A DNA stretch of 64,000 nucleotides from Cyanobacteriota bacterium (GCA_046340755.1 JBKDSY010000065.1:3633-67632), one strand, 5' to 3'. Counted from the first letter of the stretch, positions 10,295 through 63,974 are shown. Program-made: numbers and translations. Notes: generated by a model from the sequence alone, not told the origin.

Positions 10295-10486
10295 CCATCA
10301 CCTTCGCTCTGAAGTGGACCTTACCGCCGATTGGGCGCTCCAACACCCCGTCCCTTGAGGATCAACCAACGCCCTCGGCACCAAAGCTGTCGGTGCTTCG
10401 AAGGCCCATGGGTCCAGGCCCCCCAAAGTCCATCAGGTTGCAGATCCGGCGCGCCACCATGGCGGGGCGATGGAACGGAACCCGCC

Positions 10487-18570: not shown

Positions 18571-18635
18571 CTGCCTGGGACAACCCCCGTGCGGGCGGGC
18601 GCAATATAAGGAGCCTGTCCGTCCTGACCAGTCCC

Positions 18636-19519: not shown

Positions 19520-19538
19520 CCCTTGCCGGGCTCCCGCC

Positions 19539-21566: not shown

Positions 21567-21574
21567 ACCCACTC

Positions 21575-32140: not shown

Positions 32141-33370
32141 ATGGGCCACTCATCCTTGCTTGGGTCTCTCCTGGCCGCCTCTGTCCTCACACTTCCACTG
32201 GATGCACGAGCACAGATCTCCCAATCCGTGAATGCACCAGCCCCCTCCCAGCTTGTGCCACAAGACCATACCCACCGCACCATCTCTGGACTGTTTTCCG
32301 GGATGCCCTGGATCGCCAACAATTTGATTGTTGGCACCACGTCCACTGCCACCCAAGCGGGGGGTGGAAACCCGATTTTCAATCCAACCATGCCCGCCTA
32401 CTCGGGGGTGGCCACACTCTTGATTACGAAGGGATCCCAAGGCAGCTTCATCTGCTCGGGATCCCTTCTGGATGATCGCCGCTCGATCCTCACCGCAGCC
32501 CATTGCATCAGCGACAATCTGGGCAATCTGAATGCCACAGCGGCCTCGGCCTATTTCTATGACGGCAGCCTGGCCCCCCCTTACGACCCAGACACCGTTG
32601 TTTGGAGCAGCCCAGCAGCAACAGCCGTCACCGTCTCCAACTATTTCATTGCCCCTGGCTACTCAGGCGCAGTGATTGAAAACGACGATGTTGCCGTCCT
32701 TCGCCTGTCGACCGAGGCCCCTTCTTTTGCTACAAGTTATGGGCTTTATCAAAATAACTTAATGTCGACAGATTTCAATGTTGCCGGCTATGGTCAGCGT
32801 TCAGATGTGGGTGGAAATGTGGGCGCCAACCTGTCCTCCGGACGCCTGCGCCAAGGGGACAATCGTTATGAATTTCAGTGGAGCGACCCAAATTTTAATG
32901 GCGCCTTTACGACCGATCCTGATTTCATTAGTGGCGCCAATACATGGGCGGCCGATTTCGACAACGGCCTGGCCGCCAATGATGCTGGTTGCAAGATTGC
33001 TGTGGCTGTCAATCCTTCCCTTGCCAACAATCCCTCCTACTGCAACCTGGGCGTTGGCGCCAAAGAAGCGGCGATCGCCAGCGGAGACTCCGGCAGCCCC
33101 GCATTTGTGAACGGTGTTATTGCCTCCGTCAGCTCCTATGCCCTTTCCTTTGGCCCAACCTATGGAGACATCAATAGCAGCCTCAATGTTTCCTTCGGAG
33201 AATTTTCCGGCTACGTTCCGGTGTCGTCCCATTTGACCTTCATCGAGTCAGTGAAGGTGCCCGGGCCCCTTCCCATCGCTGGCACCGCCGCGATGCTCGG
33301 CTGGAGCCGGAAACTCCGCCAACTCCGCCGGCGCATTGCCGCCACCAACCGTTCCCAGCCCGGCGCCTGA
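32141..33370 (+). CDS. Trypsin-like serine protease with a PEP-CTERM-like sorting tail
   Basis: ILTAAHC, DDVAVLRL, GDSGSP triad motifs; tail VPGPLPIAGTAAMLGWSRKLR. Confidence 0.9.
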   Translation: MGHSSLLGSLLAASVLTLPLDARAQISQSVNAPAPSQLVPQDHTHRTISGLFSGMPWIANNLIVGTTSTATQAGGGNPIFNPTMPAYSGVATLLITKGSQGSFICSGSLLDDRRSILTAAHCISDNLGNLNATAASAYFYDGSLAPPYDPDTVVWSSPAATAVTVSNYFIAPGYSGAVIENDDVAVLRLSTEAPSFATSYGLYQNNLMSTDFNVAGYGQRSDVGGNVGANLSSGRLRQGDNRYEFQWSDPNFNGAFTTDPDFISGANTWAADFDNGLAANDAGCKIAVAVNPSLANNPSYCNLGVGAKEAAIASGDSGSPAFVNGVIASVSSYALSFGPTYGDINSSLNVSFGEFSGYVPVSSHLTFIESVKVPGPLPIAGTAAMLGWSRKLRQLRRRIAATNRSQPGA

Positions 33371-33589
33371 AGCCCGTTCACCATTGCGACGGATGGGACC
33401 TGTCTCCACCACTTCAGCGGCGGCCAGCTCTCCTTGGCCGGTCTGCCCTCCCCCGGGGTACGGCCCTTCCCACCCCGGGGGTGCCACCTGGTCGGTCCGG
33501 TTCGGTCCTCCCACTGCTCGGCCGATGGCGGTTTGCATACGCTCCCAAGTGACAAGCCACTCCGTCCAAGCCTCCGGAGGCTCCCCACC

Positions 33590-36220
33590 ATGCATCCCAC
33601 CGCCGAACTGTTCACCGAGAAGGCCTGGGCCGCCGTCGTTGCCGCCCAGCAACTGGCCCAGCAAAAGCGGCAACAGCAAATGGAGAGCGAGCATCTCTTT
33701 GCCGCCCTCCTCACCGAGGAGGGCCTGGCCAGCCGCATCCTGGAGAAGGCCGGTGTTGACCTGGGCAGCCTGAACCAGAAAATCAATGCCTACATCGCCA
33801 GCCAGCCCAGCCTGAGCACGGCCCCAGACAACGTCTATCTGGGGAAGGGTCTCAACGCCGTGCTCGATCAAGCCGACGCCCTGAAGAAGAGCTTTGACGA
33901 CAGCTACATCGCCATCGAGCACCTGCTGCTGGCCCTTGCCATCGACGATCGCTGCGGCAAGCAACTCCTCAGCCAGTGCGGTTGCAATGCCGATAAGCTC
34001 AAACAGGCCGTGGTCGCCGTGAGAGGCAATCAAAAAGTGACCGATCAAAATCCCGAAGGCACCTACGAATCCCTGGAGAAGTATGGCCGCGACCTCACCG
34101 CCGCCGCCCGGGACGGCAAGTTGGATCCGGTGATTGGCCGGGATGAGGAAATCCGCCGCACGATTCAAATCCTGAGCCGTCGCACGAAAAACAACCCCGT
34201 GTTGATCGGCGAGCCCGGTGTGGGCAAGACAGCCATTGTCGAGGGGCTGGCCCAGCGGATCGTCAACGGTGACGTGCCCGCCGCCCTGCAAAACCGCCAG
34301 CTGATCGCCCTCGACATGGGGGCCCTGATCGCTGGCGCCAAATACCGGGGTGAATTCGAGGAGCGGCTGAAGGCTGTGCTGAAGGAGGTCACCGCCTCGG
34401 AAGGGCAAATCGTGCTCTTCATTGATGAGATTCACACCGTGGTGGGAGCTGGCGCCACGGGCGGGGCCATGGATGCCAGCAACCTGCTCAAGCCCATGCT
34501 CGCCCGGGGCGAGCTGCGCTGCATTGGGGCCACCACCCTCGACGAACACCGTCAACACATTGAAAAGGATCCCGCCCTGGAGCGCCGCTTCCAGCAGGTG
34601 TTTGTCGACCAGCCCACGGTGGAAGACACGATCTCGATCCTGCGCGGCCTGAAGGAGCGCTACGAGGTGCACCATGGCGTGCGCATCGCCGATAACGCGA
34701 TCGTTGCCTCGGCGGTGCTCTCCAGCCGCTACATCGCCGATCGCTTCCTGCCCGACAAAGCCATCGACCTGATGGACGAAGCAGCGGCGCGGTTGAAGAT
34801 GGAGATCACCTCCAAGCCAGAGGAGATCGACGAGCTGGATCGGCGCATCCTGCAACTGGAGATGGAAAAACTCTCCTTGGGGCGCGAATCCGATGTGGCC
34901 AGCAAAGACCGACTGGAGCGGTTGGAGAAGGAACTGGCCGAGCTGGGTGAACAGCAGAGTTCCCTCAACGCCCAGTGGCAAAAGGAAAAGGGCGCCATCG
35001 ACGAGCTGGGCGCGATCAAGGAGGAGATCGAGCAGGTGCAACTGCAGATTGAACAGGCCAAGCGCAGCTACGACCTCAACAAGGCCGCAGAATTGGAATA
35101 CGGCACCCTGGGCGTCCTCAACCGCAAGCTGGCGGCCAAGGAAGCGGAACTCAACAGCGGTCAGGGAGGCAAAACCCTGCTGCGGGAGGAGGTCACCGAG
35201 GATGACATCGCCGAGGTGATCGCCAAGTGGACGGGTATTCCCGTGAGCAAGCTGGTGCAAAGCGAGATGGAGAAACTGCTCCATCTCGAAGATGAACTCC
35301 ACACCCGCGTGATTGGCCAGCAACAGGCCGTCACGGCCGTAGCCGATGCGATCCAGCGCTCCCGGGCTGGTCTGAGCGATCCCAACCGCCCCATTGCCAG
35401 CTTCCTGTTCCTCGGCCCCACAGGTGTGGGCAAGACAGAGTTGAGCAAGGCACTGGCCTCTCAACTCTTCGATTCCGAGGAGGCGATGGTGCGGATCGAC
35501 ATGAGCGAATACATGGAGAAGCACGCCGTCAGTCGTCTGATCGGGGCTCCTCCGGGCTACGTGGGCTACGAAGAAGGCGGCCAGCTGACGGAGGCTGTGC
35601 GGCGGCGCCCCTACGCGGTGATCCTCTTTGACGAGGTGGAGAAGGCCCACCCCGATGTGTTCAACGTCATGCTCCAGATCCTCGATGACGGCCGCGTCAC
35701 CGATGGCCAGGGCCGCACGGTGGATTTCACCAACACGGTGCTCATCCTCACCAGCAACATCGGCAGTGCATCCATTCTGGATCTGGCCGGTGATCCAGGC
35801 CGCCACGCCGAGATGGAGAAGAGGGTGAACGAGGCCCTCCGTGCCCACTTCCGGCCGGAATTCCTCAACCGCCTCGATGAATCGATCATCTTCCACAGCC
35901 TCAAGGCCGAGGAGCTGCGCCAGATCGTGGAGCTCCAAGTGAAGCGGTTGACCAAGCGGCTGGAAGACCGGAAGCTGGGCCTGCAGCTCAATGGCGAAGC
36001 CCTCGACTGGCTGGCTGGAGTGGGCTACGACCCGGTCTACGGCGCCCGCCCCCTCAAGCGGGCCATCCAACGGGAGCTGGAAACACCCATCGCCAAGGCG
36101 ATCCTCTCGGGCACCTTCCCACCCGGCGCAACGATCGCGGTGGACGTTGAACACGAGCGGCTGCGCTTCCAACAGGCCCCTGTCGCCAACCTGACCGGTC
36201 CCCTGCCGGTGACGGTGTAA
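33590..36220 (+). CDS. clpB: ATP-dependent chaperone ClpB
   Basis: [37 protein letters not shown]; coiled-coil middle domain. Confidence 0.98.
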
Positions 36221-36265
36221 CGCTCTGCGTGCAGTGGAGGGGAGGAGCTTCCCCTCCCCATCAGC

Positions 36266-36943
36266 ATGAAGACAGTTGCTGTGGAAGGAGAAAAGTCGAT
36301 GAATGCTCCAAAGGCAAGCCCTCGGGCGGTGATGGCCCCCTGGTGGGCTGCGACCGCCGCTGCCCTGCTGCTCTGCCCCGTGGCTCCGGCCTCCGCTGGC
36401 GTCGCCGACCTTGCGCAAGGCAGCGGTCCCCCCATGGGCATGGGGTATGGCCCGGGGGCCAGGGGCCAGCGCTCCGCCGATGCTCACTTGATCGTGATGA
36501 TGATTCCCCATCACGACGGCGCCATTGCCATGGCGGAGCTGGCCCTGACCCGAGCCCGCCATGGCGAGATCAAGGCCCTGGCGGAGCGGATCAAGACGAG
36601 CCAGTCGCAGGAGAATGCCCTGATGCGCCGGTGGTATAGCGAATGGTTTGGCGGCTCGGTGCCGCCATGGCCGGGGGGCGACCATGGCATGGGCAGGATG
36701 GGCATGCTCGGCATGGGCACAAGCCTGCAGGCCCTGAGGGAGGCGCCGGATTTTGATCGGGCCTTCCTCGAGCAGATGATCGCCCACCACCGCATGGGCG
36801 TGATGATGGCCTCCCACGCCCAGTGGGGCACGGTGCATGCCGAGTTGCAGGAGCTGGAGGCGGCGATGGTGCGGGTGCAGAGCCAGGAGATCGGGCAGAT
36901 GGAGCGCTGGTATCAGCAGTGGTATGGCGGCCGAGCCAGCTGA
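36266..36943 (+). CDS. DUF305-domain ferritin-like secreted protein
   Basis: MMIPHHDGAIAMA, QMIAHHRMGVMMA, QSQEIGQM. Confidence 0.85.
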   Translation: MKTVAVEGEKSMNAPKASPRAVMAPWWAATAAALLLCPVAPASAGVADLAQGSGPPMGMGYGPGARGQRSADAHLIVMMIPHHDGAIAMAELALTRARHGEIKALAERIKTSQSQENALMRRWYSEWFGGSVPPWPGGDHGMGRMGMLGMGTSLQALREAPDFDRAFLEQMIAHHRMGVMMASHAQWGTVHAELQELEAAMVRVQSQEIGQMERWYQQWYGGRAS

Positions 36944-50995: not shown

Positions 50996-51229
50996 GTGAT
51001 GGAAGTGGTGAACATCCATCAAGCCAAAACCCACCTCTCCCAGCTTCTGCAGGAGGTGGAACAAGGGCAGGAGGTGGTGATCGCGCGCTCAGGGGTGCCG
51101 ATTGCCCGGTTGGTGGCCTGGCAGGCTCCCGCCCAGCCCGTGGCCGCGCCCGGGGCCATGCGCGGCCAGATCCAGCTGACAGACGATTTCGATGCCCCGC
51201 TTGAGGAGCTGTTTGAGGTGCTGCGGTGA
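50996..51229 (+). CDS. Phd/YefM-family antitoxin
   Basis: VNIHQAKTHLSQLLQEVEQGQEVVIARSGVPIARL. Confidence 0.92.
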   Translation: MMEVVNIHQAKTHLSQLLQEVEQGQEVVIARSGVPIARLVAWQAPAQPVAAPGAMRGQIQLTDDFDAPLEELFEVLR

Positions 51230-51618
51230 CGCGGCTGCTGCTCGACACCCATGTGCTGCTGTGGTGGCTGAACGACGATCCACGTCTGCCGGAGACCGTG
51301 GTGCAGCGGGTGCGGGCGCCGGAGGCGGAGGTATTTGTGAGCCAGGCCTCGCTGTGGGAGATGGCGATCAAGGTGTCGATCGGCCGGCTGGTGGTGGATC
51401 TGCAGGACCTGGAGCGCCAAGTGCCGCGGCAGGGGTTCCGTTGGCTGCAAGTCAGCAACGCCCACCTGCTGGCCGTGGCGAACCTGGAAACCGCTGGCCT
51501 TCACCGGGATCCCTTTGATCGCCTGCTGGTGTGCCAGAGCCGGGTGGAGCCGATGCTGTTGCTGAGTGTGGATCGCCAACTGCGGAGCTACGGCAACACG
51601 GTGATTGTTGTGGCGTAA
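51226..51618 (+). CDS. vapC: PIN-domain (VapC) toxin
   Basis: LLLDTHVLLWW, SLWEMAIK, HRDPFDRLL; GTGA overlap with the antitoxin. Confidence 0.92.
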   Translation: MTRLLLDTHVLLWWLNDDPRLPETVVQRVRAPEAEVFVSQASLWEMAIKVSIGRLVVDLQDLERQVPRQGFRWLQVSNAHLLAVANLETAGLHRDPFDRLLVCQSRVEPMLLLSVDRQLRSYGNTVIVVA

Positions 51619-51899
51619 GGAGAAACCCAAGGACGTTGGTTGAACCGCAGGCTGAAACGCAATGAGACGTGCCTGGATTGGCAGACGGACCGGCGGCCGC
51701 GAGCGAATTTCCACGACCACTCCGTTGCCATTCGACAACCCGATCAACCGTTCCAGCAGGTGTGATGTCTTGCCAAGGCTCCAGGGAACCGGCCTGCCCA
51801 ACAATCCAACTGGCGACTGGGGCTGGGGCCATCTCCCTTAACGGATACCATCATCTCTTGCCCAGCTCCCGCGTCCACTCGTTCCGCCGCATCGGCTCA

Positions 51900-53198
51900 G
51901 TGACCATCCAGCCAACGTCAGCAGGGGAGACAGAGACCACCACGTTGCCCGGGGTACCGGGCCAGCCGCTTCACCCACCGCTGGCGCTGGAGGGGCCGCC
52001 GCCGCCGCCGCCACTCGGCGACACTCCCGCGGCGTTGCCCAAGGCCACTTCTGAGGCTCTTCCCGGAATCGTGGAGGAACTGCAGACCTGCCTGGCCACC
52101 CCCAGCCCCCTGTTCCTCGGCCAGGCGATCGAAGCAGAGTTGGTGCAGACTCTGGCCGCCCATGAGTTCGACACCCTGTTCCTGTTCAGCGAGCCGCGGG
52201 TGTTCGCCGTCCATGGCCAGCCTCTGCTAGATCGCCTGCGGCACGGCCAGCGCTGTGTGCTTCAACTGGTGGGAACGGGGGAGAGCTGCAAGCGCTTTGC
52301 CAGCCTGGAGGGGGTGCTGGAAGGATTGATCGCCGCGGGAGCCAGCAAGCGCTCGCTCCTGATCGCCTTTGGCGGTGGCGCGGTGGGCAATCTGGTGGGA
52401 CTGGCGGCGGCCCTGCTGTTTCGCGGCGTGCGCTACATCGAGATCCCCACCACCATGACGGGGCAGACCGACAGCGTGTTGAGCAACAAGCAGGCGATCA
52501 ACGGCCGATACGGCAAAAACCTGTTTGGTCTTTATCACGCGCCACTGTTCATCTGGGTCGACACCCACTACCTGCTGAGTGAACCGCTGGCCTCCTGCCG
52601 GAGCGGCATCGTGGAGGGCATAAAGAATGGCTTCATCGCCGATCCGCCCTTTCTTGCCTACCTGGAGAGCGTTCTGGAACCCGAGCATCGCTACAGCGCC
52701 AACCAGCGCCATGGGCTGGTGAGGCGCCTGATCCTCTCCAAGCTGCCGATTCTGCGCCGCGATCCATCCGAAAAGGGCTACGGCATCATCTTGGAATACG
52801 GCCACACCTTCGGCCATGGGCTGGAGTTTCTGCTGGGTGGCCGGATGCAGCATGGTGAAGCAGTGGCTTACGGCATGCGCATCGCCGCGCGGCTGGCCCA
52901 TCGCCTCGGGCTGATCAACGCTGCGCTGGTGGACCGGCACGATCAGCTCATTGTTCAGCGGCTGGGCTTCGCAGCACCATGGCCTGAGTCGGTGCGGGCC
53001 AACGATTTGCTCAACGCCATGGCGTCGGACAACAAGAAAACGGGGCGGGAGTTGCGCTATGTGTTGCTGGAAGGGCTCGGCCACTGCGCCAATCCGGAGG
53101 GCGATTGGATGATGAAGGTTGAGGATGGCTTGGTGCTGGAGGTGTTGGAAGCGTTCATTGCCGAGATTGGCGTCAGGGAGGCGACGACTCCATGCTGA
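51900..53198 (+). CDS. 2-deoxy-scyllo-inosose synthase-like sugar phosphate cyclase (BtrC-like); start uncertain
   Basis: EFDTLFLFSE, GGGAVGNLVG, DSVLSNKQAIN, GKNLFGLY, VEGIKN, EKGYGIILEYGHTFGH, HGEAV. These match BtrC-type motifs as I recall them, not AroB (GD, DSSVGGK, LNFGH). Confidence 0.8.
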   Translation: MTIQPTSAGETETTTLPGVPGQPLHPPLALEGPPPPPPLGDTPAALPKATSEALPGIVEELQTCLATPSPLFLGQAIEAELVQTLAAHEFDTLFLFSEPRVFAVHGQPLLDRLRHGQRCVLQLVGTGESCKRFASLEGVLEGLIAAGASKRSLLIAFGGGAVGNLVGLAAALLFRGVRYIEIPTTMTGQTDSVLSNKQAINGRYGKNLFGLYHAPLFIWVDTHYLLSEPLASCRSGIVEGIKNGFIADPPFLAYLESVLEPEHRYSANQRHGLVRRLILSKLPILRRDPSEKGYGIILEYGHTFGHGLEFLLGGRMQHGEAVAYGMRIAARLAHRLGLINAALVDRHDQLIVQRLGFAAPWPESVRANDLLNAMASDNKKTGRELRYVLLEGLGHCANPEGDWMMKVEDGLVLEVLEAFIAEIGVREATTPC

Positions 53199-54304
53199 GC
53201 GGCGCCCTGGGCCTGGTTCTGGCCGCCGCACCGCCCGCACTGCCGGTGCCGCCCAGAGTGCCCGCACCCGCGGCTTCGCTGCCGGAGACGATTCGCAGTT
53301 TCACGATCACCTGCCTGGCCAAGGCGCGTGCGGGGCTGAACGCCTTCGGGGGCATCGGCGGGGTGACCTACGAACGGAGCCATGATCGCTGGTGGATGGC
53401 CTCAGAAGGCCTGCCCTTGCTCTTTCCGGTGACCGTTGATCCGCGCTCCCCCGATCCTCGGCCGCGCATCGGCACACCACTCACCCTCCATGGCGATCCC
53501 CGCGGGGAAACGTTCAAAAAGGTGGAAGCCCTCGCCCTCTGCCACGATCGTTTCTTCATCGGCACGGAAGCCGTGATGGCCAGCGATCTCCCCAGTGGCA
53601 GGGAGCAGGATCTGAGGGTGGTCATCGCTGACCGGCTGGCGCGTGTCACGGGGGAGTTGGCTCTGCCCGCCCATGTGCAGCGGCTCCGCCCGGGGATTGG
53701 ATCCCATCTCTACCGCGGCATCCAGGGCCTCTCCTGCAGCCCCGATGGCCATCAGCTCCTGGTGAGCCTGCAGCGGCCCCTGCAACAAGATGGCGCCGTG
53801 TCTATGAGCCGCCAGCTGCTCTACCGCTTGCACCCAGACCGCCAGACCTTCGTGCTCGAGCGGGAGTTTCTGTTGCCCCTCACCCACCAGCTCGGTCTGA
53901 TGGACAGCGTGTTGCTGGGGAACGGCGACGGGTTGATGCTGCAGAACGAGGTCAAGCCGCGCCAGCGCAACACCCTCTCCCACTTTCGTCTTGACGGGGG
54001 CGAAGACAGCGGCGGCTGCGTCTCCCTGCTGGATTGCCCAGCCCGCCCAGCGGCCGCCACCGTGGTGCTGGATCACATCGAGCGCCAGGCCGGTGTGGAT
54101 CTGGCTGCCAACGAGGTGCAATACGACGCCGCCGCCCTGGGCCCCACCCTGGCGGATGGCCGCCGTGTCGTGCTCCTCGTCAATGACGACGACCATTGCG
54201 GCACCCTCACCAGCCCCAACGCCACCATCGCGCCCGGCTTCGCGGGCACCACCTTCACCCGTGTTCTTCTCCCCCCCGCGCCCCCCGAGGGAGGTGGGCC
54301 ATGA
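53192..54304 (+). CDS. Secreted phytase-like/esterase-like beta-propeller protein
   Basis: Signal peptide; FGGIGGVTY, VEALAL, IQGLS, ALGPTLADGRRVVLLVNDDD resemble the phytase-like family. Confidence 0.7.
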   Translation: MLSGALGLVLAAAPPALPVPPRVPAPAASLPETIRSFTITCLAKARAGLNAFGGIGGVTYERSHDRWWMASEGLPLLFPVTVDPRSPDPRPRIGTPLTLHGDPRGETFKKVEALALCHDRFFIGTEAVMASDLPSGREQDLRVVIADRLARVTGELALPAHVQRLRPGIGSHLYRGIQGLSCSPDGHQLLVSLQRPLQQDGAVSMSRQLLYRLHPDRQTFVLEREFLLPLTHQLGLMDSVLLGNGDGLMLQNEVKPRQRNTLSHFRLDGGEDSGGCVSLLDCPARPAAATVVLDHIERQAGVDLAANEVQYDAAALGPTLADGRRVVLLVNDDDHCGTLTSPNATIAPGFAGTTFTRVLLPPAPPEGGGP

Positions 54305-55104
54305 CCCAGCCGGTCCAGTCCCCAACACCCGATCCACCCTTCCCCCTTTATCAGGATTTGCGCGGGCGCGGGGTGGTGATCACCGGGGGCGCCGCGGGCA
54401 TCGGCGCGGCCCTCTGTGAGGCGTTTGTGGGTCAGGGCGCGCGGGTGATCAGCCTGGATCGGGACACGGAGGGCCATCGGCGCCTGATGGAGCGTTGCGC
54501 CGAGGGGCCCGGTGCGCTGGAGGGGCTGGAGGTGGATCTCTGTGATGGCACCGCCCTGGTGCGCACGTTGGCTCAGGTGCGCGAACGATTGCCGGAGCTG
54601 CGCGTGGTGATCGCCAATGCCGGCTACGACCCTCGCCACGACGGCCTGGCGATGGAGGAGCGCCAATGGAACGAACTCTTTCAGCTCAACGTCACCCACG
54701 CCTTTCTCACCTGCCGCGAACTCCTGCCCCAACTGGTCGCCAATGGCGGCGGCAGTGTGATCCTCACCACCAGCCACACCGCCTGGATCGCCAAGCCCGA
54801 ACTGATCGCCTACAACAGCACCAAGGCGGCGCTGGTGGGTCTCACCCGTGGCCTGGCGGAGGCCTATGGAGGCCAGGGCATTCGGGTGAATGCCGTCGCG
54901 CCGGGCTGGACGATGACCGAACGACAGTTGCGCCAATGGGTGACGCCGGAGGCTCTCGATGAGACCGTGCATCGCCTGCAGGCCATGCCCCTCACCCTCA
55001 CCCCCGAGCTGATCGCCCAACCGTTTCTGTTCCTCGCCAGCGATGCCTCCCTGGCCCTCACGCGCCAGGTGTTGATCGCCGACGCGGGTCAAACCAAGAT
55101 CTGA
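54301..55104 (+). CDS. SDR-family NAD(P)-dependent oxidoreductase (aldose-dehydrogenase-like)
   Basis: ITGGAAGIG, NAGYDPRH, YNSTK, GIRVNAVAPGWTMTERQLRQW; resembles Caulobacter XylB-type SDRs. Confidence 0.9.
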   Translation: MTQPVQSPTPDPPFPLYQDLRGRGVVITGGAAGIGAALCEAFVGQGARVISLDRDTEGHRRLMERCAEGPGALEGLEVDLCDGTALVRTLAQVRERLPELRVVIANAGYDPRHDGLAMEERQWNELFQLNVTHAFLTCRELLPQLVANGGGSVILTTSHTAWIAKPELIAYNSTKAALVGLTRGLAEAYGGQGIRVNAVAPGWTMTERQLRQWVTPEALDETVHRLQAMPLTLTPELIAQPFLFLASDASLALTRQVLIADAGQTKI

Positions 55105-55110
55105 GGCGCC

Positions 55111-55953
55111 ATGGCGGATGACATCGGCCTCTGCACCTGGATCTTCGGCCACCAACGCCACCCGGAGATCGCGGCGGTGGCGGCTGACCTGGGCTGCGCG
55201 GGGGTGGAGCTGCACGTGCCGCTGGACGTCTGGCCCGCCGCCGAGTGGCGACACCTCTACCGCTCCTTCGGATTGCGCATCCTCTCGCTGACGCCGGAGA
55301 ATGTCGATTTGGCCCATCCCCATCCGCGCGAACGGGAGCGGGCGGCGCACTACTACAGCCGTCTGATCGCTTTTGCCGCGGAGCTGGAGGCGCCAGCGAT
55401 CACGATCCACGAGTATGTGGGACGCGGCGCGGCGCCTGATGGCCAGCAGCCGGAATGGGAGCGGTTGCTGGTGGCTTGCCGGCGGCTGGTGCCCTTGGCG
55501 GAGGAGCGGCGGGTGGATCTGCTGTTGGAGCCCCTCCGGCCGCCCCTGGTGAGTCAGATCCAGCGGGCCGCCGATGCCGTGCGGCTCTCTGAGGCGGTGG
55601 GGTCGGAGCGGTTGCGCATCGTGCTCGACACCTTCCACATGGAAGCCGCCGAGGCGAATCCAGGCGGCGCGATTCGCCTCTGCGCGGACCGGCTGGGGGC
55701 GGTGCAACTGGCAGACCGCCAGCGGCGGGGGCTGGGGCTTGGCGGCATGGAGCTCCAGCCTTATTGGGACGCCTTTGCCGCCATCGGCTTTCGCGGCCCC
55801 TGGATCCTGGAATGCGCCGCGGGCCTGAGCGGCCCCTCCCTGCAACACCGTGACGTCGACCTGACCCTGTTGCGGGGGGAGCTGGAGAGCAGTCTGGTTG
55901 TGCTGCGCCGCCATCTGGTGTTGCCACCGCCGGTTTCGGATGGACCGGTCTGA
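55111..55953 (+). CDS. Sugar phosphate isomerase/epimerase (ketose 3-epimerase/IolI-like TIM barrel)
   Basis: LLLEPL, VLDTFHM, VQLAD..R, WILEC. Confidence 0.85.
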   Translation: MADDIGLCTWIFGHQRHPEIAAVAADLGCAGVELHVPLDVWPAAEWRHLYRSFGLRILSLTPENVDLAHPHPRERERAAHYYSRLIAFAAELEAPAITIHEYVGRGAAPDGQQPEWERLLVACRRLVPLAEERRVDLLLEPLRPPLVSQIQRAADAVRLSEAVGSERLRIVLDTFHMEAAEANPGGAIRLCADRLGAVQLADRQRRGLGLGGMELQPYWDAFAAIGFRGPWILECAAGLSGPSLQHRDVDLTLLRGELESSLVVLRRHLVLPPPVSDGPV

Positions 55954-55979: not shown

Positions 55980-56816
55980 TCAACCAGGCCGCAGCTGACC
56001 CTGCCACCCCTGCCAGAGCAGGAGCGCCCCGCTGAGCAGCAGGGCGCCGCTGAACACCGCGTACACCCCCTCCTTGGAGGTGTTGCGCAAGAAGCGCTGT
56101 CCGAGCACGATCCCGATCGGCGTGAGCGGCAGGAACAGCAGGGAGAGTCGTAGTGCGGGCAGATCCAGCTGCCCCGTGGCCACGAAGGGCAGCACCTTGC
56201 TGGTGTTCAGGCAGGCAAACAACCAGGCCTGGGTGCCGGCCAGCAGTCGTGGCTCCAGCCGCTGCCCCATCAGGTGCACCATCACGGGCGGTCCGCCGGC
56301 GTGAACGAGCATGCTGGTGAAGCCCGCCAGCGCCCCCCACAGCCTGCCGATGCCATCTCCTGATCTCCGCGGCAGCGGCTGTGGCGAGGGGGGATTGGCG
56401 ACCATGGGCCGACGCAGCCAGCGCAGCAGCACGAACCCCAGGCAGATCACGCCAATCAGAATGCGCAGCCCGTCGTCCGAGAGCCAGCGGCCGACAAGGG
56501 CGGCCGCCACCATGCCCAGCAGGGCTGGGGGCAGCAGCAGTCGCAGCTGATGGCGATCGAAACAGCCGCGGAAGCTGACCAGGGCCAGCGCATCCAGCAC
56601 GAGCAGCAGCGGCAGCAGGATCGCCGCCGCCTGAAAGGGCGGCAGCACCAGGCTCATCAACGGCACGCAGATGGCGCTCAGCGGTGCCCCGGCGCCCCCC
56701 TTGGCAAAGCCATACACCAACACGGCGAGGCTGATGACAAGGATCTGGGCCGGGCTGAGCGCCGTTAGGGCAGAGGGGAGCAAACCAGCAGCGTGGTGGG
56801 CCTGCTGATCCTGCAT
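55980..56816 (-). CDS. TauE/SafE-family exporter
   Basis: YGFAKGGAG, AAAILLPLLLVLD, GFTSMLVHAGGPP; about 8 TM helices. Confidence 0.85.
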   Translation of the reverse strand: MQDQQAHHAAGLLPSALTALSPAQILVISLAVLVYGFAKGGAGAPLSAICVPLMSLVLPPFQAAAILLPLLLVLDALALVSFRGCFDRHQLRLLLPPALLGMVAAALVGRWLSDDGLRILIGVICLGFVLLRWLRRPMVANPPSPQPLPRRSGDGIGRLWGALAGFTSMLVHAGGPPVMVHLMGQRLEPRLLAGTQAWLFACLNTSKVLPFVATGQLDLPALRLSLLFLPLTPIGIVLGQRFLRNTSKEGVYAVFSGALLLSGALLLWQGWQGQLRPG

Positions 56817-56997: not shown

Positions 56998-57828
56998 TCA
57001 GGCTGAGCTTGGCTGCGGCAGGACGGACTGCAGGAGGCCCTGTTGGATCAGGCGTTCGAAATGATCCCAGACATCATCGGCATGGGCGGGGCTGCTGAGA
57101 TGGAGGCCCAGCTCGAAGTTGGAGAGCTGAGCGGCATCCGTCAGGTTGGCGCTGGTGACGAGCAACTCTTGATCGGCTACCACCGCCTTGACGTGACAAA
57201 CAGCTTTCTCCCGTTCAAGCGATAGGGAACGGGGGTCGAAGAACACCGCAGGAGCAGGCGGTTCAGGCCAAAGGCGTGACCAGGTTTGATGTTGAAACTT
57301 ACGGATCAAGGCCTCAGGGCTTGAGGTGTCGCCACGATCCCGGTGGATGTTGCAGACCATCCGCACGTGCAACGTCGGGTGCGCCACCATGCGCTCCCGG
57401 ATCAGCTGAAACAACTCTTGGATGAAGGGCCCGTTGTAGAAGGCGTAGGTGGTGAGCAGCAGGCGCTGCTCGGCCCGCTCCACCAACTGACGAATCAGCA
57501 CCGACTGATCGCGGGTGACCGACCCTGCTCCTGCATCCGGGCCTGACCACACCAGTTCGATCGACCGTGCTGCCATGTCACTGCGTCGCTGATCCAAGAG
57601 GGCCTGAAGGGACAGGAGCAGGGCCTCTCTGCTGCCGCCTGAGGCACGCCAGTGCACCAGCCAGGCATCCAGGGAACCGGGGCCGGTCGCCAGACCGATT
57701 CGGGCCAGGAAGGCTGGAGGATCAGCCAGGTCGGCCGCGAGAGAACCGGAATCGCCGCGGTGGGAATCCAGCGCCGCCAACAGGGTTTCCAGCTCAGCGG
57801 TGCTCAGATTGGGGAAGGCCGCAGCCAT
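56998..57828 (-). CDS. drmC: DISARM phospholipase D-family nuclease DrmC
   Basis: ELVWSGP, HVKAVVAD (HxKxxxxD), TSANLT, NFELG; directly after drmB. Confidence 0.88.
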   Translation of the reverse strand: MAAAFPNLSTAELETLLAALDSHRGDSGSLAADLADPPAFLARIGLATGPGSLDAWLVHWRASGGSREALLLSLQALLDQRRSDMAARSIELVWSGPDAGAGSVTRDQSVLIRQLVERAEQRLLLTTYAFYNGPFIQELFQLIRERMVAHPTLHVRMVCNIHRDRGDTSSPEALIRKFQHQTWSRLWPEPPAPAVFFDPRSLSLEREKAVCHVKAVVADQELLVTSANLTDAAQLSNFELGLHLSSPAHADDVWDHFERLIQQGLLQSVLPQPSSA

Positions 57829-59750
57829 CAGGGGGCGTCCGTGAAGAAGGCTGCGTCCTGCTGGATCAGGGTGGGAACGACAAGAGCGCGATCGAGAAAC
57901 TCATTGCGGCGTTCACAGCTGGTTTCAGCGATCAGCAGACAGCCATGGCAGGCGGCGCCGTGGGAGTAACGCTTCTCCAGTTCGCTGTTGGGGTCGTGGC
58001 TGGCGCAGAAGGGGTCGTTGGAGCAGAGGGAGGCTCGCTCCAGCGCCATCGCCAGCAGTTCATCAATGCGATCAGCCATGCCCACCAGGCCACCGAGCGA
58101 GCCCTCCGAACCGCTGCCTCCGGTATAGAGAAGGATACCGTAACCAATGTCATCGAAGGCGTAAATGCGCTCCTTGATCGCCGAGGCGCCATAGCCGCAA
58201 TCAAGTGCAGCCTCGGTGATCAGCAGGTGGGCGAGGCTATGGAGCATCAGGTAGGCGCCCCCAGGCCACTGAAACTTCTCCTCAGTGAGACCATGTTCCT
58301 TATTCCAGATCTTGAAAGCCTCACGGTGTTTGGAGAGGTGCTGAGCAGCTCCGTCACTCTTGAGCCAGCTGCGGATGGCCTCTGGATCGAAGCCAAGGAA
58401 GAGGCCTTCACCGAGATTTTCCACGGCCGGCAGCCAGGTTTCTTCTTTCACATCGATCTTCGCTCGCTTCACCCCAAGATCGAGGGGATCACCATCGATC
58501 TGGCTCACCACAGGCTCCAGGCGGGTGAAGCCCAGGAGGGCCATCACTTCCCGCAACTGGTGCACCTTTAACACTCGGTTGACGCGCTGCCGGAACCAGG
58601 CTGGTTTGGCTGCCAGATCAAGCTGTTCTGCTTCAAAGCGGCTGTTGCCTGTGCCGCGCGGCAGCCCATCGATGGGGCCGACCAAGGCGCGCAGTTCCTG
58701 TCGCTTGAGGGCCTCGGTCTTCTCCGGCGCAGCTTCACCCCCACGGATGGCTTCGAGAGCTGCGAAGATCTCAGCGGGGGCTGCACCAGCGAGAGGATCC
58801 TTGATGTGGTCGGGCGCGAAGTCCTCGAGCCAGACTTCGAGTTTGGCAGCACTGGTGATCTTCTCGAACGCCTTGAGGTGCTTGCTGATCACCTCCCGCA
58901 CCGCATCGATCGGTTGGGGAATGGAGATCGCCGAGATTAGCTCGGGGAAGTAGGCATTGCTGGCGGACCTCACCAGCAGGCGATTGGCGTAGCTGCCGCC
59001 CTTGCCCTTGCCGTTGTCGCAGGCCTCCTGGCCGAACGGACCCAGCCAGGGCCGATGCCCCTGGCAGAAACCCAGGGCTGGTCTTTCGTCTTCCTCGCCT
59101 CTGAGTTTCTGCTTGGCCTCAGAGAGCTGTCTGCGTCCCTTCTCTTCCATGCACTTTGGGTTGGAGCAGCGCACAAAGATCTCGGTGAAGTCGTTGCCAG
59201 CCCCGGCCTCATCCAGCCAGAGGGTGGCCCGGCAGGTGGTTTTGCCGCGGTGCACGAACTCCCGCCAGTCGATGTCGCTGAGATGGCCATTGGGGCAGGT
59301 CTGCACAAAGCGCACCGGCACGACGCGATGGGCCTTGCGATCGGCATCAACGAACTTGCGTTTGTCGAGGCGAGCGCCCTCCACCAGGGGGCGGCTGCGG
59401 TAGGTCTTGCCATCGAAGATCTCCGTTTTGTCCAGCTGGGCCACAAACCAGTTGGGGAACTCGGGGCTGCGGATGCCGCCGGGGCGGCTCAGGCCGCCCG
59501 GGCCAACATCGTGGATGGGCGGTTTGCGGAGGCGCAAGGAGCCCACATTGAGGCTCTGGCGAAGCTTGGCGATCAGCCGTGGTTCGTCGATCTCCTCGGG
59601 AGGCTGATCAGGGCCGTACATCCAGAGGTTGAGGCCCCCGATCACCACCGAGCAATCGGGCAGATCCACCATGGCGCCCGGGCCATGGGTGGTGATCAGC
59701 TGGCTATGGCGCACTTCCCCCTGGGGGCGCATGGACGGTTGAGGGGCCAT
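57828..59750 (-). CDS. drmB: DISARM DUF1998-domain protein DrmB
   Basis: VRHSQLITTHGPGAMVDL, MLHSLAHLL, CSNDPFC, AACHGC, ETSCE. Confidence 0.92.
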   Translation of the reverse strand: MAPQPSMRPQGEVRHSQLITTHGPGAMVDLPDCSVVIGGLNLWMYGPDQPPEEIDEPRLIAKLRQSLNVGSLRLRKPPIHDVGPGGLSRPGGIRSPEFPNWFVAQLDKTEIFDGKTYRSRPLVEGARLDKRKFVDADRKAHRVVPVRFVQTCPNGHLSDIDWREFVHRGKTTCRATLWLDEAGAGNDFTEIFVRCSNPKCMEEKGRRQLSEAKQKLRGEEDERPALGFCQGHRPWLGPFGQEACDNGKGKGGSYANRLLVRSASNAYFPELISAISIPQPIDAVREVISKHLKAFEKITSAAKLEVWLEDFAPDHIKDPLAGAAPAEIFAALEAIRGGEAAPEKTEALKRQELRALVGPIDGLPRGTGNSRFEAEQLDLAAKPAWFRQRVNRVLKVHQLREVMALLGFTRLEPVVSQIDGDPLDLGVKRAKIDVKEETWLPAVENLGEGLFLGFDPEAIRSWLKSDGAAQHLSKHREAFKIWNKEHGLTEEKFQWPGGAYLMLHSLAHLLITEAALDCGYGASAIKERIYAFDDIGYGILLYTGGSGSEGSLGGLVGMADRIDELLAMALERASLCSNDPFCASHDPNSELEKRYSHGAACHGCLLIAETSCERRNEFLDRALVVPTLIQQDAAFFTDAP

Positions 59751-62700
59751 CAGGTCATCTCCTCATCGCGATCAGGGCGTTGTCGGATCAGAGCAGCGCT
59801 GGGTTCCACATCGCGCAGGCTCCAGTTGGCCAGGAATTCCTGCTCCATCGCTTTGAGCTCCTTGAGATCGGGGTCAAGCGGGGTGTGGAGCAGGGGAGCC
59901 ACTTCACCTGCTTCACGGCCGTACTGGAGCAGGCCGTCCTTGTCACGGGCAATGCGGATCCACTTGTCGAGAAGGTTCATCACCCGCTGACGGACCTCAG
60001 CCTCGGTGTGTTCGCTGAGGGCCTTGCTCGGCGCGGAGCGGCGGGCCCGGTCCCCGATCCGCTGGGCCACCTCCGCCTGGCCGGCATTCTTGGCCCTGCT
60101 GAGCTCTGGGCTGAGGTGACGGGCGAGCGCCACGGTGATGGCTGGCAGCCCTCGCTGCAGGGCTCTGGACGACCAGGGTGTGACGCTGGTGGCTTCCACA
60201 TCGCGATAAAAGACCGAGTGCCAGAAGCTGAAGCGCTCGGAGTGGGAGCGGTCGCGCGGTCGGTTGGGGTTGAGCAACACCACCACCAGGCCAGGGCGCT
60301 GGTCGTCGCGGCCGACGCGGCTGCTGGCCTGGATGTATTCGGCCGTGGTCTTGGGTTGGCCCAGCATCACCATCAAACCGAGGCGGCTGATGTCGAGACC
60401 CACCGAGATCATGTTGGTGGCCAGCGCCGTATCGACGCGCTGCTTCTCATTGTCGAAACTGAGCTCGAGGCGGGCCTTGGTGGTGCTCACTTCCGAGGTG
60501 GGCACCCGTGAGGTGAGCTCCAGGGGTTCATTGGCGATCTTGCGGCGGGCGTAGCGCGCGCTGGTTTCGTTGAGGCGACGGCGCTGGTCGTAGGTGGTGA
60601 GCAGGGAGGTGACTTCTTCTTCCAGCAGGCGGCGGGTGATGCCGAGCTCCTTGATGGTGTTGAAGTAGCCCAGGAAGGTCATGTAGGGGTCAACGGGGTT
60701 GGGCCCCTTGGCTTCGCCTCGTTTCTCGCGGGCCTTGCGTTCCTTTTCGGCCTGGGTATAGAGCTTTTGGGCCGTGCTCATCAAGGCCAGGCCCACCCGC
60801 AGCAGCAAGGCCTTGATGTTGCGCCCAGGAGCAGAGATCCCGAGATAGATCCGTCCTTCTGCCTCGGTGACCGAGGCGGTGTAGGAGAAGAAGGAATCAC
60901 GGCGATCGGGGCCCGGGGCTGGGAAGACCGCCGGTGGGCTGCTGCGGCCGAACAGAGCCTGCATCTGCTGGCTGGCCCGGCGCACGGTGGCGGTGGAGGC
61001 CACGATCTTGGGCCTCACGATCTTGGCTCCATTGGCTGTCTCCACCTGGCGTGCACAGAGTTCATCGATCACCGCCTCATAGAGGCCGCCCATCGATCCC
61101 AGGGGGCCGGAGATGAGGTGGAGTTCGTCTTGAATGATCAGATCGGGGGGCTCCAGCCCCCGGGGCAGCAGCCCTCCAGCCTGATCACTGCCATCGCTGG
61201 GGCCAAAGAAGCCCTTGCCTGGCTGGGCATGGGTCACGCGGCCGAAGAGCTTCCCGGTCGCTCCCACCCAGGGCAGGGCAGCGAACTTGTCGACCGTGGC
61301 GATCACGAAGGCCGGCAGGCGTTGATAAAGCATCTCGTCGACGGCCACCAGCGGCAGGGTGTTGTCGCCCGAGAAGCGGCACTGGCGGTTGCGGCAGCAG
61401 ACCCTCAGCTCCTTCGGCTGATCGGCATTGGGGAGGAGGCGAAACACCCCGCGGGCCACCGCCGGACGCTCATCGCCCGGGGAAGCCTTGCCAAGCTCGG
61501 CGCCACACCATGGGCAGTTGTCGATCGGAATCGGCTTGTTGTCACCCCCGCTCCAGGCCAGCACGCGGGAGCGGGCACTGTTGTCGTCGTTATCGCCTTT
61601 GTGGCCCAGCTTGTTGGGGGTGCCGCTCTGCCCCACCCACAGGCCGATCTCGAAGGGCCACTGGCCGAGCCGCTTGGGATCCTTGCGGCGTTCCAGCTCC
61701 AGGGCGCAGATCAAGGTGGAGGCCCGGCCGAGCTGATCGAGGGTGAGCAGGCGGAGTGTGTAGCGCATCAGCACGCTCATGCCGGCCGACGCGATCGATC
61801 CCCCGTGGCGCAGCCGGCGCAGCACCAGGGTGTAGGCCGCCAGCCCCAGGTAAGCCTCGGTCTTGCCGCCGCCGGTGGGAAAGAACAGCAGGTCGATGGT
61901 GTCGCGATCGCCATCGGTGGGCTCCGCCATCCCAACGAGGTTCATCAGCACAAAGGCGAGCTGGAACGGCCGCCATTGGGGTTTCACGGCATCGGGGTTT
62001 TGGTTCCGCATCACCCCGAATCGCTGACGGGCAGCGGCGGCCATCACGCGGTTGGCGATCGCAAAGGCCAGCCGCACCTGTTCGTTCTCCAGGGCTTCGA
62101 TGCCACGCTCGATCCGCCGGGCCTGCTTGCTGGCCTCGTGCAGAAGCTCTGCGGCTGTGGCCTGTTGCTGCGTGCTCGCCGTATCTGTCGTTGTGCGCTG
62201 CTGCTCGATCCAGTCCGTGTAGGCCGTCACGAGAGGGCGTAAGGCCGTCTGCACAGGGTCGGCCCCTTCGCTCGCCAGGCGATCCAGCTCCGGCATCGAC
62301 AGCACCAGGCCGGCGGCTTCCAGTTCCCCCACCCTGGGCAGCACCCTCTCCACAGTGGCCTGGGGCAGCCAGGTGGTGCTGATCTGGAGGCAGCGGCCGT
62401 TGGCCTCGAGGCGGGGTGCCACGGAGATGTTGTGCCCCACGGCGAACTCGTGGTCGCCCCGGTAGTGGAGGTTGTTGACGCGGTGGTCCCAGTCGTTGGC
62501 GTTGATGGCCAGATCAGCGGCGCGGGGGTCGCGGCGCTCCAGGAAGCCGGCGCCGCAGATCACATCCAGCTGCACTTGGTAGGCACTGGCACGATCGCGG
62601 TCTTCCGCACTGCGGCCTTCAAAGCGGCGTTCGTTGGTGAGGAACAGGCTCACGGCCACGGCGCCGGGCGGGTAGCCCTGAGCCACAGGCGCGGGCCGCA

Positions 62701-63286
62701 GGTGCCATCGCAGCATCAGGCCCTCGCTGCCGGGCACCGGCTTGGCCTGGGCCGATCGGCCCCTGGGCGCCAGCCATTCGGCCGGGATGCTGATCTGCTC
62801 GGTGTGGGGTTCACGCAACCAGGCTTCGTCGGCCTTGCTGCCTTCTGGCGGGGCGGTGGGCTTGTAGCTGGCCCAGTGCACCGTGACCTCCAGCCCGGTG
62901 GCTGCCGGGATGAGCAGGCTCAAGCCAACGGAGCAGGTGAAGAACACTCGCCGCGCTGGCCCGGCTTCACTGGCGCCGGTGTCATCGCCTCGGGCGTTGC
63001 TCTTGCGTTTGGGGGAGAGGTTCTGGCCATCGAGGCCGGCGAATTCGTCGTCGGCCGCATCATCGGCGCGCTCGCCCAGGCTGGTTTCACTGGGGATCAG
63101 GAAACCGGTCTGGTACCAGCGGTTCGGGGGGCGATCGAGCACCTCTTCGCGCAGCTCGGTTGCCTCCTGGCTCTGGCCTTCGGCCTCCAGCTGCGCAAGA
63201 AGGCAAGGGGTGGGCCCCACGAGATCGAGCTCCAGGGCCTGGATCAGCTGTTCTCGCACCGCTGCGCTGGTGGAGTTGGACGTCAC
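59750..63286 (-). CDS. drmA: DISARM SF2 helicase DrmA
   Basis: ALELDLVGP, WRPFQLAF, FPTGGGKTEAY, QDELH, ATNMISVGLD, YIQASSRVGR. Confidence 0.92.
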   Translation of the reverse strand: MTSNSTSAAVREQLIQALELDLVGPTPCLLAQLEAEGQSQEATELREEVLDRPPNRWYQTGFLIPSETSLGERADDAADDEFAGLDGQNLSPKRKSNARGDDTGASEAGPARRVFFTCSVGLSLLIPAATGLEVTVHWASYKPTAPPEGSKADEAWLREPHTEQISIPAEWLAPRGRSAQAKPVPGSEGLMLRWHLRPAPVAQGYPPGAVAVSLFLTNERRFEGRSAEDRDRASAYQVQLDVICGAGFLERRDPRAADLAINANDWDHRVNNLHYRGDHEFAVGHNISVAPRLEANGRCLQISTTWLPQATVERVLPRVGELEAAGLVLSMPELDRLASEGADPVQTALRPLVTAYTDWIEQQRTTTDTASTQQQATAAELLHEASKQARRIERGIEALENEQVRLAFAIANRVMAAAARQRFGVMRNQNPDAVKPQWRPFQLAFVLMNLVGMAEPTDGDRDTIDLLFFPTGGGKTEAYLGLAAYTLVLRRLRHGGSIASAGMSVLMRYTLRLLTLDQLGRASTLICALELERRKDPKRLGQWPFEIGLWVGQSGTPNKLGHKGDNDDNSARSRVLAWSGGDNKPIPIDNCPWCGAELGKASPGDERPAVARGVFRLLPNADQPKELRVCCRNRQCRFSGDNTLPLVAVDEMLYQRLPAFVIATVDKFAALPWVGATGKLFGRVTHAQPGKGFFGPSDGSDQAGGLLPRGLEPPDLIIQDELHLISGPLGSMGGLYEAVIDELCARQVETANGAKIVRPKIVASTATVRRASQQMQALFGRSSPPAVFPAPGPDRRDSFFSYTASVTEAEGRIYLGISAPGRNIKALLLRVGLALMSTAQKLYTQAEKERKAREKRGEAKGPNPVDPYMTFLGYFNTIKELGITRRLLEEEVTSLLTTYDQRRRLNETSARYARRKIANEPLELTSRVPTSEVSTTKARLELSFDNEKQRVDTALATNMISVGLDISRLGLMVMLGQPKTTAEYIQASSRVGRDDQRPGLVVVLLNPNRPRDRSHSERFSFWHSVFYRDVEATSVTPWSSRALQRGLPAITVALARHLSPELSRAKNAGQAEVAQRIGDRARRSAPSKALSEHTEAEVRQRVMNLLDKWIRIARDKDGLLQYGREAGEVAPLLHTPLDPDLKELKAMEQEFLANWSLRDVEPSAALIRQRPDRDEEMT

Positions 63287-63289
63287 GGC

Positions 63290-63646
63290 TCAGCTCTCCT
63301 CGCGTTGCAAGCTGTCAATCAATGCAGAACAGGTGGTGCGCATTGGCGAGAGCGATGTTTGAATCACACCCCAAACAAGTGCATCATCCACCCTGTCGTA
63401 TTCATGGGTGAGCTTGTTGCGGAAGCTGATGATCCGCACAGCCTGATCAATGCGGGCAAACACGCCACTGTCGACCCGCGAAAGGTTGTTGAGAGCTTCA
63501 CCAATGGTGATGAACTCCCTCTCAATGGCAGCACGGATCAGGCGGCTGTTGCAGTAGTCACCGAAACTGACGCCCTTGACCGCATCGGCAATGGCGTCTG
63601 CCGATTCGACGACAGCCATGAGCAGCACCCTGGAATCACGCCGCAT
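63290..63646 (-). CDS. HEPN (DUF86/HepT-like) ribonuclease toxin
   Basis: MRRDSR...IGEAL...FRNKLTHEYD: R-x4-H motif followed closely by Tyr; start at ATG 63646, overlapping the MNT gene. Confidence 0.88.
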   Translation of the reverse strand: MRRDSRVLLMAVVESADAIADAVKGVSFGDYCNSRLIRAAIEREFITIGEALNNLSRVDSGVFARIDQAVRIISFRNKLTHEYDRVDDALVWGVIQTSLSPMRTTCSALIDSLQREES

Positions 63647-63974
63647 AGAGCAACCGCTTGGTGGCGTCGATGTCGGCCTGCACGATGGGGTTGCGCCTGG
63701 CGGTTGCCATGACCAAATCCACCGGAGTGCCAAGGCGGTCGACGAGCTGTTCCTCGAGCCCGAAGTAGGCATCCACAAGCTCGGTGGGTTCCAGCGGCTG
63801 GAACTCCACCAGCAGGTCGATGTCGCTCTGACCTGGGCGGTAATCGGGGCGCAGCAGCGAACCAAACACATAGAGCCGTGAAACGTGGTGTTGGCTGCAG
63901 GCTGCCGTGATGACCGCAAGTTGGGGCTTGGTGAGCGGGAGCGCTCCCATGTCGTGATCGTGCTGGCTCATCAC
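63636..63974 (-). CDS. Minimal nucleotidyltransferase (MntA-like) antitoxin
   Basis: LYVFGSLLRPDYRPGQSDIDLLVEF, PVDLV. Confidence 0.9.
   Translation of the reverse strand: MMSQHDHDMGALPLTKPQLAVITAACSQHHVSRLYVFGSLLRPDYRPGQSDIDLLVEFQPLEPTELVDAYFGLEEQLVDRLGTPVDLVMATARRNPIVQADIDATKRLLYAA

Follow-up and report, generated by a model that had tools for sequence, protein, structure and literature searches.

Results

Gene content and genomic setting of the locus

The DNA analysed (the window) is a stretch of 64,000 nucleotides from a member of the Cyanobacteriota. At 51900..53198 of the plus strand it contains the gene of a sugar phosphate cyclase similar to 2-deoxy-scyllo-inosose (DOI) synthases (DOIS), with 432 aa when read from the GTG at 51900 and with the Pfam domains DHQ_synthase and DHQS_C. 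Three genes follow on the same strand, coding for a 'phytase-like' PF13449 beta-propeller protein (53192..54304; Pfam 6e-21), a short-chain dehydrogenase/reductase (SDR) of the sugar-1-dehydrogenase-like subgroup (54301..55104; Pfam adh_short) and a xylose-isomerase-like TIM barrel (55111..55953; Pfam AP_endonuc_2). The four genes are tightly packed: the start of the propeller gene overlaps the stop of the cyclase gene (53192/53198), and the SDR gene begins in an ATGA overlap with the propeller gene (54301/54304). A fifth gene, on the minus strand and convergent with this operon, encodes a membrane protein of the TauE/SafE (TSUP) family (55980..56816; Pfam TauE, 4.6e-28).

The setting of this cassette is an accessory, defence-rich island. 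Upstream, the gene of a PIN-domain (VapC-like) toxin (51226-51618, plus strand) ends 50 bases before the open frame that holds the cyclase gene. Directly downstream are the genes DrmC, DrmB and DrmA of a DISARM system (56998-63286, minus strand) and, after them, a HepT-like RNase (63290-63919, minus strand); the remaining components of DISARM, the methyltransferase among them, would fall past the end of the window.

The host is a freshwater-type picocyanobacterium. The window contains a phycobilisome linker gene (8232-9173), and the closest carriers of the cyclase gene are metagenome-assembled genomes (MAGs) named Cyanobium sp. and Synechococcaceae. The genome has 3.35 Mb, in a family that also includes genomes of 1.6–2.7 Mb, and the mean GC of the window is about 65%.

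Some other features of the window were recorded. A P-type cation ATPase gene (10331-13174, plus strand) has a single in-frame TAG at 11648-11650, which could correspond to a pseudogene, a sequencing error or read-through. The region 14158-22357 is of very high GC (0.73–0.74) and encodes a TamB-like protein of 1515 aa, an S15 peptidase and a DUF3887 protein. Two large open reading frames of the minus strand, at 33248-36838 (1196 aa) and 3028-4728 (566 aa), gave no match to Pfam or PADLOC; the first of them adjoins a stretch of lower GC (38–42 kb, GC 0.54–0.58) with a protein of 1052 aa containing a 5'-nucleotidase C-domain.

Sequence features of the cyclase

The cyclase gene is held by an uninterrupted frame at 51669-53198 of the plus strand. 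Another possible start is the TTG at 51858, and the public gene call for an identical protein, with 446 aa, matches it. The N-terminus is a Pro-rich extension of about 55 aa, which in alignments is covered by picocyanobacterial homologues only. The remainder corresponds to the two-domain fold of dehydroquinate synthase (DHQS), as indicated by the Pfam matches to DHQ_synthase and DHQS_C (E around 1e-26 each). In a search of PDB sequences the best match was BtrC, the DOI synthase of Bacillus circulans (2d2x; 171.7 bits, E 2e-49), which was used as solved reference and for residue numbering. In view of the E values of both searches, the assignment to this superfamily is not a chance match.

The initial annotation of the locus had singled out three motifs and a set of metal ligands, and all of them were located in the translation of 51900-53198 (plus strand). 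Numbering from the GTG at 51900, they are GGGAVGN at 158–164, DSVLSNKQAIN at 191–201, E239..K242-N243, ILEYGHTFGH at 297–306 (containing E299, H302 and H306) and H318. The metal ligands E239, H302 and H318 correspond to Glu183, His246 and His262 of BtrC. The phosphate pocket is also fully kept, with Arg175, Lys197, Asn207, His306 and Lys379 at the positions of R119, K141, N151, H250 and K322 of BtrC.

Relationship of the cyclase to known sugar phosphate cyclases

Behind BtrC, the other PDB matches of the cyclase were the best AroB (153.7 bits), ValA, an EEVS (88 bits), and DDGS (67 bits), the last two being cyclases of sedoheptulose-7-phosphate. With sequence profiles, the cyclase scored 305 bits for DOIS (a profile built from 20 named DOIS), 216 for AroB and 97 for EboD; with the same profiles, the AroB of its own genome scored 210, 490 and 136 bits, respectively. 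The top NCBIfam model for the cyclase was aroB (TIGR01357), but the score of 240 bits was under the equivalog cut-off of 305. A genuine aroB, with 360 bits for the same model and cut-off, is located on contig C232 of the genome, so that the separate aroB envisaged in the initial annotation does exist.

Two phylogenetic trees were constructed, a quick one of 86 rows and a careful one of 53 rows. They included the named DOIS gathered from Paenibacillus, Micromonospora, Streptoalloteichus, Streptomyces and Pseudomonas, the EboD of three ebo loci of cyanobacteria located with the EboE model, and other representatives drawn from an exhaustive HMMER search. Some of the sequences were incomplete, as they were taken from PDB alignments (BtrC 65–364, ValA 41–353 and two AroB cores), and references for DDGS, EVS and aminoDHQS were not included. 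Both trees concurred in a DOIS-like superclade (100/100, branch 0.87) that includes the cyclase and is apart from AroB, EboD and ValA, the latter being far across the tree. The superclade is divided into clade 1 (100/99), with BtrC and all the named DOIS, and clade 2 (100/95), with the cyclase of the window, four other picocyanobacterial proteins, proteins of other cyanobacteria, and some, uncharacterised, that come from different phyla. Clades 1 and 2 are sister groups (94/93) and, in the careful tree, the cyclase of the window was not nested within the clade of the characterised DOIS.

So, the cyclase groups with DOIS, and not with AroB, EEVS or EboD. The initial annotation had considered it a BtrC-type DOI synthase and had pointed to phylogeny as one of the ways to check this. 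The affinity to DOIS is borne out by the profile, by the active-site residues described below and by the separation from AroB and from the EEVS ValA in the trees; on the other hand, membership of the BtrC type needs qualification, as the protein belongs to a sister clade of its own, outside the named DOIS lineages.

Active-site residues

Nineteen alignment columns were invariant in DOIS but different in AroB. In twelve of them clade 2 has the DOIS residue (N108, S136, S139, Q142, A143, N187, E243, G258, A274, H291, N321 and L338, in BtrC numbering), in four it shows conservative changes (F118Y, L189F, L240I and R323K), and in the other three it displays fixed differences (H125E, A255L and M335Y/F). 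Besides, Arg94, invariant in all the other groups, is Lys in clade 2. The metal ligands are invariant throughout this clade.

The residues of BtrC that discriminate DOIS are Asn108, Lys141, Gly/Ala239 and Glu243, to which we attribute here the active-site roles known for BtrC. The cyclase of the window is of the DOIS type at all four of them (N164, K197, G295 and E299). Asn108, Glu243 and Lys141 occur in 14/14 members of clade 2, and Gly239 in 13/14, with Ala in the remaining one. In contrast, position 108 is Asp, 239 is Arg and 243 is Asn in all seven AroB aligned, including that of the same genome, and in EboD positions 108 and 243 are both Asp. The changes of Asp to Asn in GGGAVGN and of Asn to Glu in ILEYGHTFGH, already noticed in the initial annotation, are thus the DOIS-type Asn108 and Glu243. 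Arg264 and Asn268 of DHQS, which we take to be the binders of the carboxylate and the phosphate of DAHP, are replaced by Gly and Glu in the cyclase. Lys236 is common to the cyclase and to about half of the DOIS set, the remainder having mostly Arg.

The other proteins of the cassette

The propeller protein is hydrophobic at the N-terminus, contains five invariant cysteines and is probably periplasmic or secreted, acting outside the cytoplasm. Its homologues were only 35 among 5.8 billion proteins, and the few named ones come from cyanobacterial MAGs (Cyanobium sp. and Cyanobacteriota). A PDB sequence search gave no match, and a fold search with its AF2 model (pLDDT 79) returned only generic WD40/propeller matches with TM around 0.4.

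Concerning the SDR, the best NCBIfam match was D-xylose 1-dehydrogenase (179 bits, under the cut-off), and the PDB neighbours include sulfoquinovose 1-dehydrogenase (9gwu). The pair Asp99/Arg101, which binds the 2- and 3-hydroxyls in the latter enzyme, is kept in the SDR, but the sulfonate-binding Arg152 is missing (the alignment has a gap at this position) and Lys takes the place of Arg154. An assignment as sulfoquinovose dehydrogenase was rejected for the lack of Arg152. The SDR is predicted to be a keto-cyclitol reductase or a cyclitol dehydrogenase.

The TIM barrel matched ketose 3-epimerases in the PDB sequence search (E 2e-12). Its AF2 model (pLDDT 90.7) gave Foldseek TM values of 0.88 to D-tagatose 3-epimerase and of 0.82–0.87 to YcjR, a 4-epimerase of 3-keto-glucosides. 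Ketose 3-epimerases and YcjR-type enzymes invert the carbon adjoining a ketone, and an inosose offers such chemistry. The family-invariant residues E140, D173, H176, Q199, R205 and E234 correspond to E150, D183, H186, H209, R215 and E244 of DPEase. The two enzyme types have in common both catalytic Glu, the Asp that binds the metal, and the His and Arg that contact the substrate. The difference is at Q199, which is Gln throughout the family of the TIM barrel where ketose 3-epimerases have a His metal ligand. The cassette also resembles the YcjS/YcjR pairs in that the TIM barrel has an NAD(P) oxidoreductase as partner, in this case an SDR. The modelled structure and the residues conserved predict a metal-dependent epimerase/isomerase acting beside a ring ketone; judging from the context, this ketone presumably belongs to a carbocycle and not to a sugar.

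The TauE/SafE protein is predicted, from its family, to be the exporter of the pathway product.

Conservation and distribution of the cassette

The same five genes, in the same order, were found in all five picocyanobacterial loci, those of the window being 58–90% identical to those of the other four. The TauE copy is in the same place in 4/4 of these other loci (L025-L028), with 73–89% identity. A tblastx comparison of the window flanks with the four loci gave no match at 1e-20, and thus the flanks of the cassette are not shared.

Outside picocyanobacteria the neighbourhood varies. About 30 other cyanobacterial loci are arranged as cyclase, MFS_3 exporter, which in these clusters replaces TauE, orthologous TIM barrel (33–37% identity) and orthologous SDR (51–55%). 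About 18 loci have the cyclase with a TIM barrel of a different subfamily and sometimes an MFS exporter, and a Heliomicrobium MAG has the cyclase with an SDR (59% identity) and a TIM barrel (44%). The propeller gene was present in 5/5 picocyanobacterial loci and in none of the others. Across the clade, most sampled loci encode, within a few kb of the cyclase, an AP_endonuc_2 TIM barrel that belongs to any one of three subfamilies.

The initial annotation had labelled the pathway as of the aminoglycoside type. This label does not fit the gene neighbourhood, made up of the propeller, the SDR, the epimerase-like TIM barrel and the exporter: in the Pfam and NCBIfam annotation of the neighbours there was no aminotransferase, DOIA dehydrogenase or glycosyltransferase near the cyclase, and the 2-deoxystreptamine gene set was found in none of the annotated loci.

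In more distant relatives of the cyclase, a SAM methyltransferase is fused to it or encoded after it, and there are larger clusters with a third type of TIM barrel, TatD, PLP enzymes and radical SAM proteins. Two non-cyanobacterial loci (L022, 5844-15134; L024, 1707-11840) encode a PALP enzyme, the cyclase with a SAM methyltransferase, a TIM barrel, a TatD-like protein and a PLP decarboxylase, and continue with a B12-radical SAM protein, a Zn-ADH and an AMP-ligase. This conserved cluster looks like an uncharacterised natural-product pathway for a cyclitol.

Scanning 185,579 species genomes for the motif returned 111 loci, about 50 of them cyanobacterial. Orthologues with 52–58% identity occur in about 45 other cyanobacterial species. 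Many of them are labelled '2-deoxy-scyllo-inosose synthase' by NCBI; many relatives of the cyclase are annotated as 3-dehydroquinate synthase in the source databases. The gene is thus not unique among cyanobacteria, whose sugar phosphate cyclases the initial annotation had taken to be normally AroB or DDGS/EEVS; EboD, a known C6 cyclase, occurs in them as well (PMC12904256). It is the rarity of the gene within picocyanobacteria that is unusual. In a first sample the orthologue was found in 0/36 other species genomes of the genus and, at the family level, in 2/401 genomes including that of the window, being absent from 399 of the 400 others sampled.

Seven congeners (G005, G020, G021, G023, G027, G028 and G034) carry a second DHQS-like gene that is only distantly similar to the cyclase of the window (about 80 bits and about 30% identity) and may be of the DDGS/EEVS or EboD type; the genome of the window does not have such a second distant gene.

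Discussion

Proposed function of the cyclase and the cassette

The similarity of the cyclase to BtrC comprises the fold with its two Pfam domains, a local alignment that runs without gaps through most of the core, the metal ligands E183/H246/H262, the phosphate pocket, Asn108, Gly239 and Glu243, the DS.LS.KQA.N motif and DNK. The differences are the position in a sister clade, the changes H125E, A255L, M335Y/F and R94K fixed in it, the Pro-rich N-terminal extension, and a context without the aminotransferase, dehydrogenase and glycosyltransferase of 2-deoxystreptamine pathways. A literature search found no characterised member of clade 2 and no paper on its cluster.

From these sequence comparisons, it can be said with considerable confidence that the protein is a C6 sugar-phosphate cyclase of some kind. 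That its substrate is glucose-6-phosphate (G6P) and its product DOI or a close stereoisomer seems somewhat probable. The lower confidence in the second statement is due to the placement in a sister clade, to the changes fixed specifically in that clade and to the precedent of EboD. The substrate of EboD was earlier predicted to be sedoheptulose-7-phosphate (PMC5133447) and turned out to be mannose-6-phosphate (PMC12904256), so guesses of substrate from tree position can fail in this superfamily. Since clade 2 is a sister of the named DOIS lineages and is itself uncharacterised, it is from homology that we infer G6P as the substrate of the cyclase.

The cyclase would be an NAD+- and divalent-metal-dependent enzyme of the DOIS type, catalysing the first step of an operon that appears to be horizontally mobile, translationally coupled and accessory. 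By homology with BtrC and DHQS, a hexose-6-phosphate, most probably G6P, would bind to the conserved phosphate pocket. Tightly bound NAD+ would oxidise C4, phosphate would be lost across C5–C6 with the aid of Glu299, and C4 would then be reduced back. Ring opening and an intramolecular aldol reaction would yield 2-deoxy-scyllo-inosose or a close stereoisomer. The TIM barrel may then epimerise or isomerise the carbon beside the ketone, through a metal-stabilised enediolate, and the SDR may reduce the ketone to give a C6 cyclitol of the deoxy-inositol type, which would leave the cell by the TauE-family exporter (the MFS_3 exporter in other cyanobacteria). The roles of the SDR, the TIM barrel and the propeller, and the order of the later steps, are those suggested by fold and family only.

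Alternative interpretations

The alternative with most weight, although we consider it rather unlikely, is that clade 2 represents a new sugar phosphate cyclase activity, which would use another hexose-6-phosphate (mannose-, galactose-, allose- or glucosamine-6-phosphate) or give another ring stereochemistry, the product not being DOI; the SDR and the TIM barrel may then act before the cyclase, in making its substrate, and not after it, on its product. The separateness of a well supported clade (100/95) with no characterised member would agree with this, and so would R323K and the four other changes fixed in it at DOIS-invariant positions (H125E, A255L, M335Y/F and R94K), as well as the neighbours, which in most sampled loci include an epimerase-like TIM barrel and in none of the annotated ones the 2-deoxystreptamine enzymes. 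EboD itself, a C6 cyclase of cyanobacteria acting on mannose-6-phosphate, is a precedent for C6 cyclases with substrates other than G6P (PMC12904256). However, the residues surrounding the substrate (DS.LS.KQA.N, E..KN, EK..G..EYGHT and DNK) are of the DOIS type, unlike those of DHQS, EEVS and EboD, and the DOIS profile score of 305 bits is high. Identity with EboD, the cyclase (DEIS) that acts on mannose-6-phosphate in the ebo/thallusin pathway, is a different matter and the least probable of the readings considered. The two proteins share the superfamily, the C6 cyclase character, a product that is not an aminoglycoside and a TIM-barrel partner, as a DHQS-like cyclase and a xylose-isomerase-like TIM barrel occur side by side in ebo clusters of cyanobacteria (PMC12904256; PMC5133447; preprint 10.64898/2026.05.21.724671). 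Nevertheless, EboD was ruled out by the residues (Asp108 and Asp243), by the tree, where EboD groups with ValA far from the cyclase, by an identity of only about 30% to the three cyanobacterial EboD, and by the absence of EboE from the genome. The TIM barrel of the cassette matches neither the EboE model nor an EboE sequence, the EboD profile score is only 97 bits, and the genes of EboA, EboB, EboC, EboE, EboF, the UbiA prenyltransferase, TatD and the phosphodiesterase are not near the cyclase.

A second, divergent 3-dehydroquinate synthase, that is, an AroB isozyme for the shikimate pathway, would account for aroB being the top NCBIfam model (240 bits), for the annotation of many relatives as 3-dehydroquinate synthase and for the common superfamily, NAD+/metal chemistry and 30–35% identity. 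It is nonetheless highly improbable: the score is under the equivalog cut-off, the genome already has a canonical aroB, the residues specific for DAHP have been exchanged (Gly for Arg264, Glu for Asn268, and N for the last residue of GGGxxGD), the tree splits the cyclase from AroB with 100/100 support, and the gene, lacking in 399/400 other family genomes, is accessory and not core. Hardly more credible is the extreme form of a new activity, a cyclising sulfoquinovose lyase, in which DOIS chemistry on 6-deoxy-6-sulfoglucose would eliminate sulfite, to be removed by TauE/SafE. The TauE/SafE family owes its name to the export of sulfite and sulfonates, and the picocyanobacterial cassette has kept a member of it, while the SDR resembles sulfoquinovose 1-dehydrogenase (134 bits) with Asp99 and Arg101 kept. 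Against this, the cyclase keeps all the DOIS residues of the phosphate pocket, the SDR has no sulfonate-binding Arg152 and has Lys for Arg154, there is no sulfoquinovosidase in the cassette, and the orthologous clusters of other cyanobacteria use MFS_3 and not TauE. Sulfoquinovose, a look-alike of G6P, is produced by cyanobacteria according to one article (PMC9594981), but the literature search gave no paper tying it to such an enzyme.

Biological significance

DOI is known to us in nature almost only as the entry to the 2-deoxystreptamine antibiotics of actinomycetes and bacilli, BtrC-type DOIS being part of the butirosin, neomycin, kanamycin and gentamicin pathways. The enzyme-level DOIS call is not new because NCBI already names many relatives '2-deoxy-scyllo-inosose synthase'. 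What is new is a sister clade of DOIS with a non-aminoglycoside set of partners, extending over about 50 cyanobacterial species and scattered members of other phyla, in most of whose sampled loci the cyclase has an epimerase-like TIM barrel within a few kb and usually a reductase and an exporter. With the cyclase taken as a DOIS-type enzyme, these findings suggest that in phototrophs a DOI-type cyclitol has a second fate, other than antibiotics. The gene content suggests that the cassette probably makes and exports a six-carbon cyclitol that is not an antibiotic; it could be an exported solute, a signal or the precursor of a chelator. If the activity were instead a new one, the cassette would represent an undescribed pathway making and exporting a C6 carbocycle. 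A characterised activity would give the sugar phosphate cyclase superfamily another branch, soon after EboD and, as a rare accessory trait in picocyanobacteria, the cassette may mark a niche-specific metabolite.
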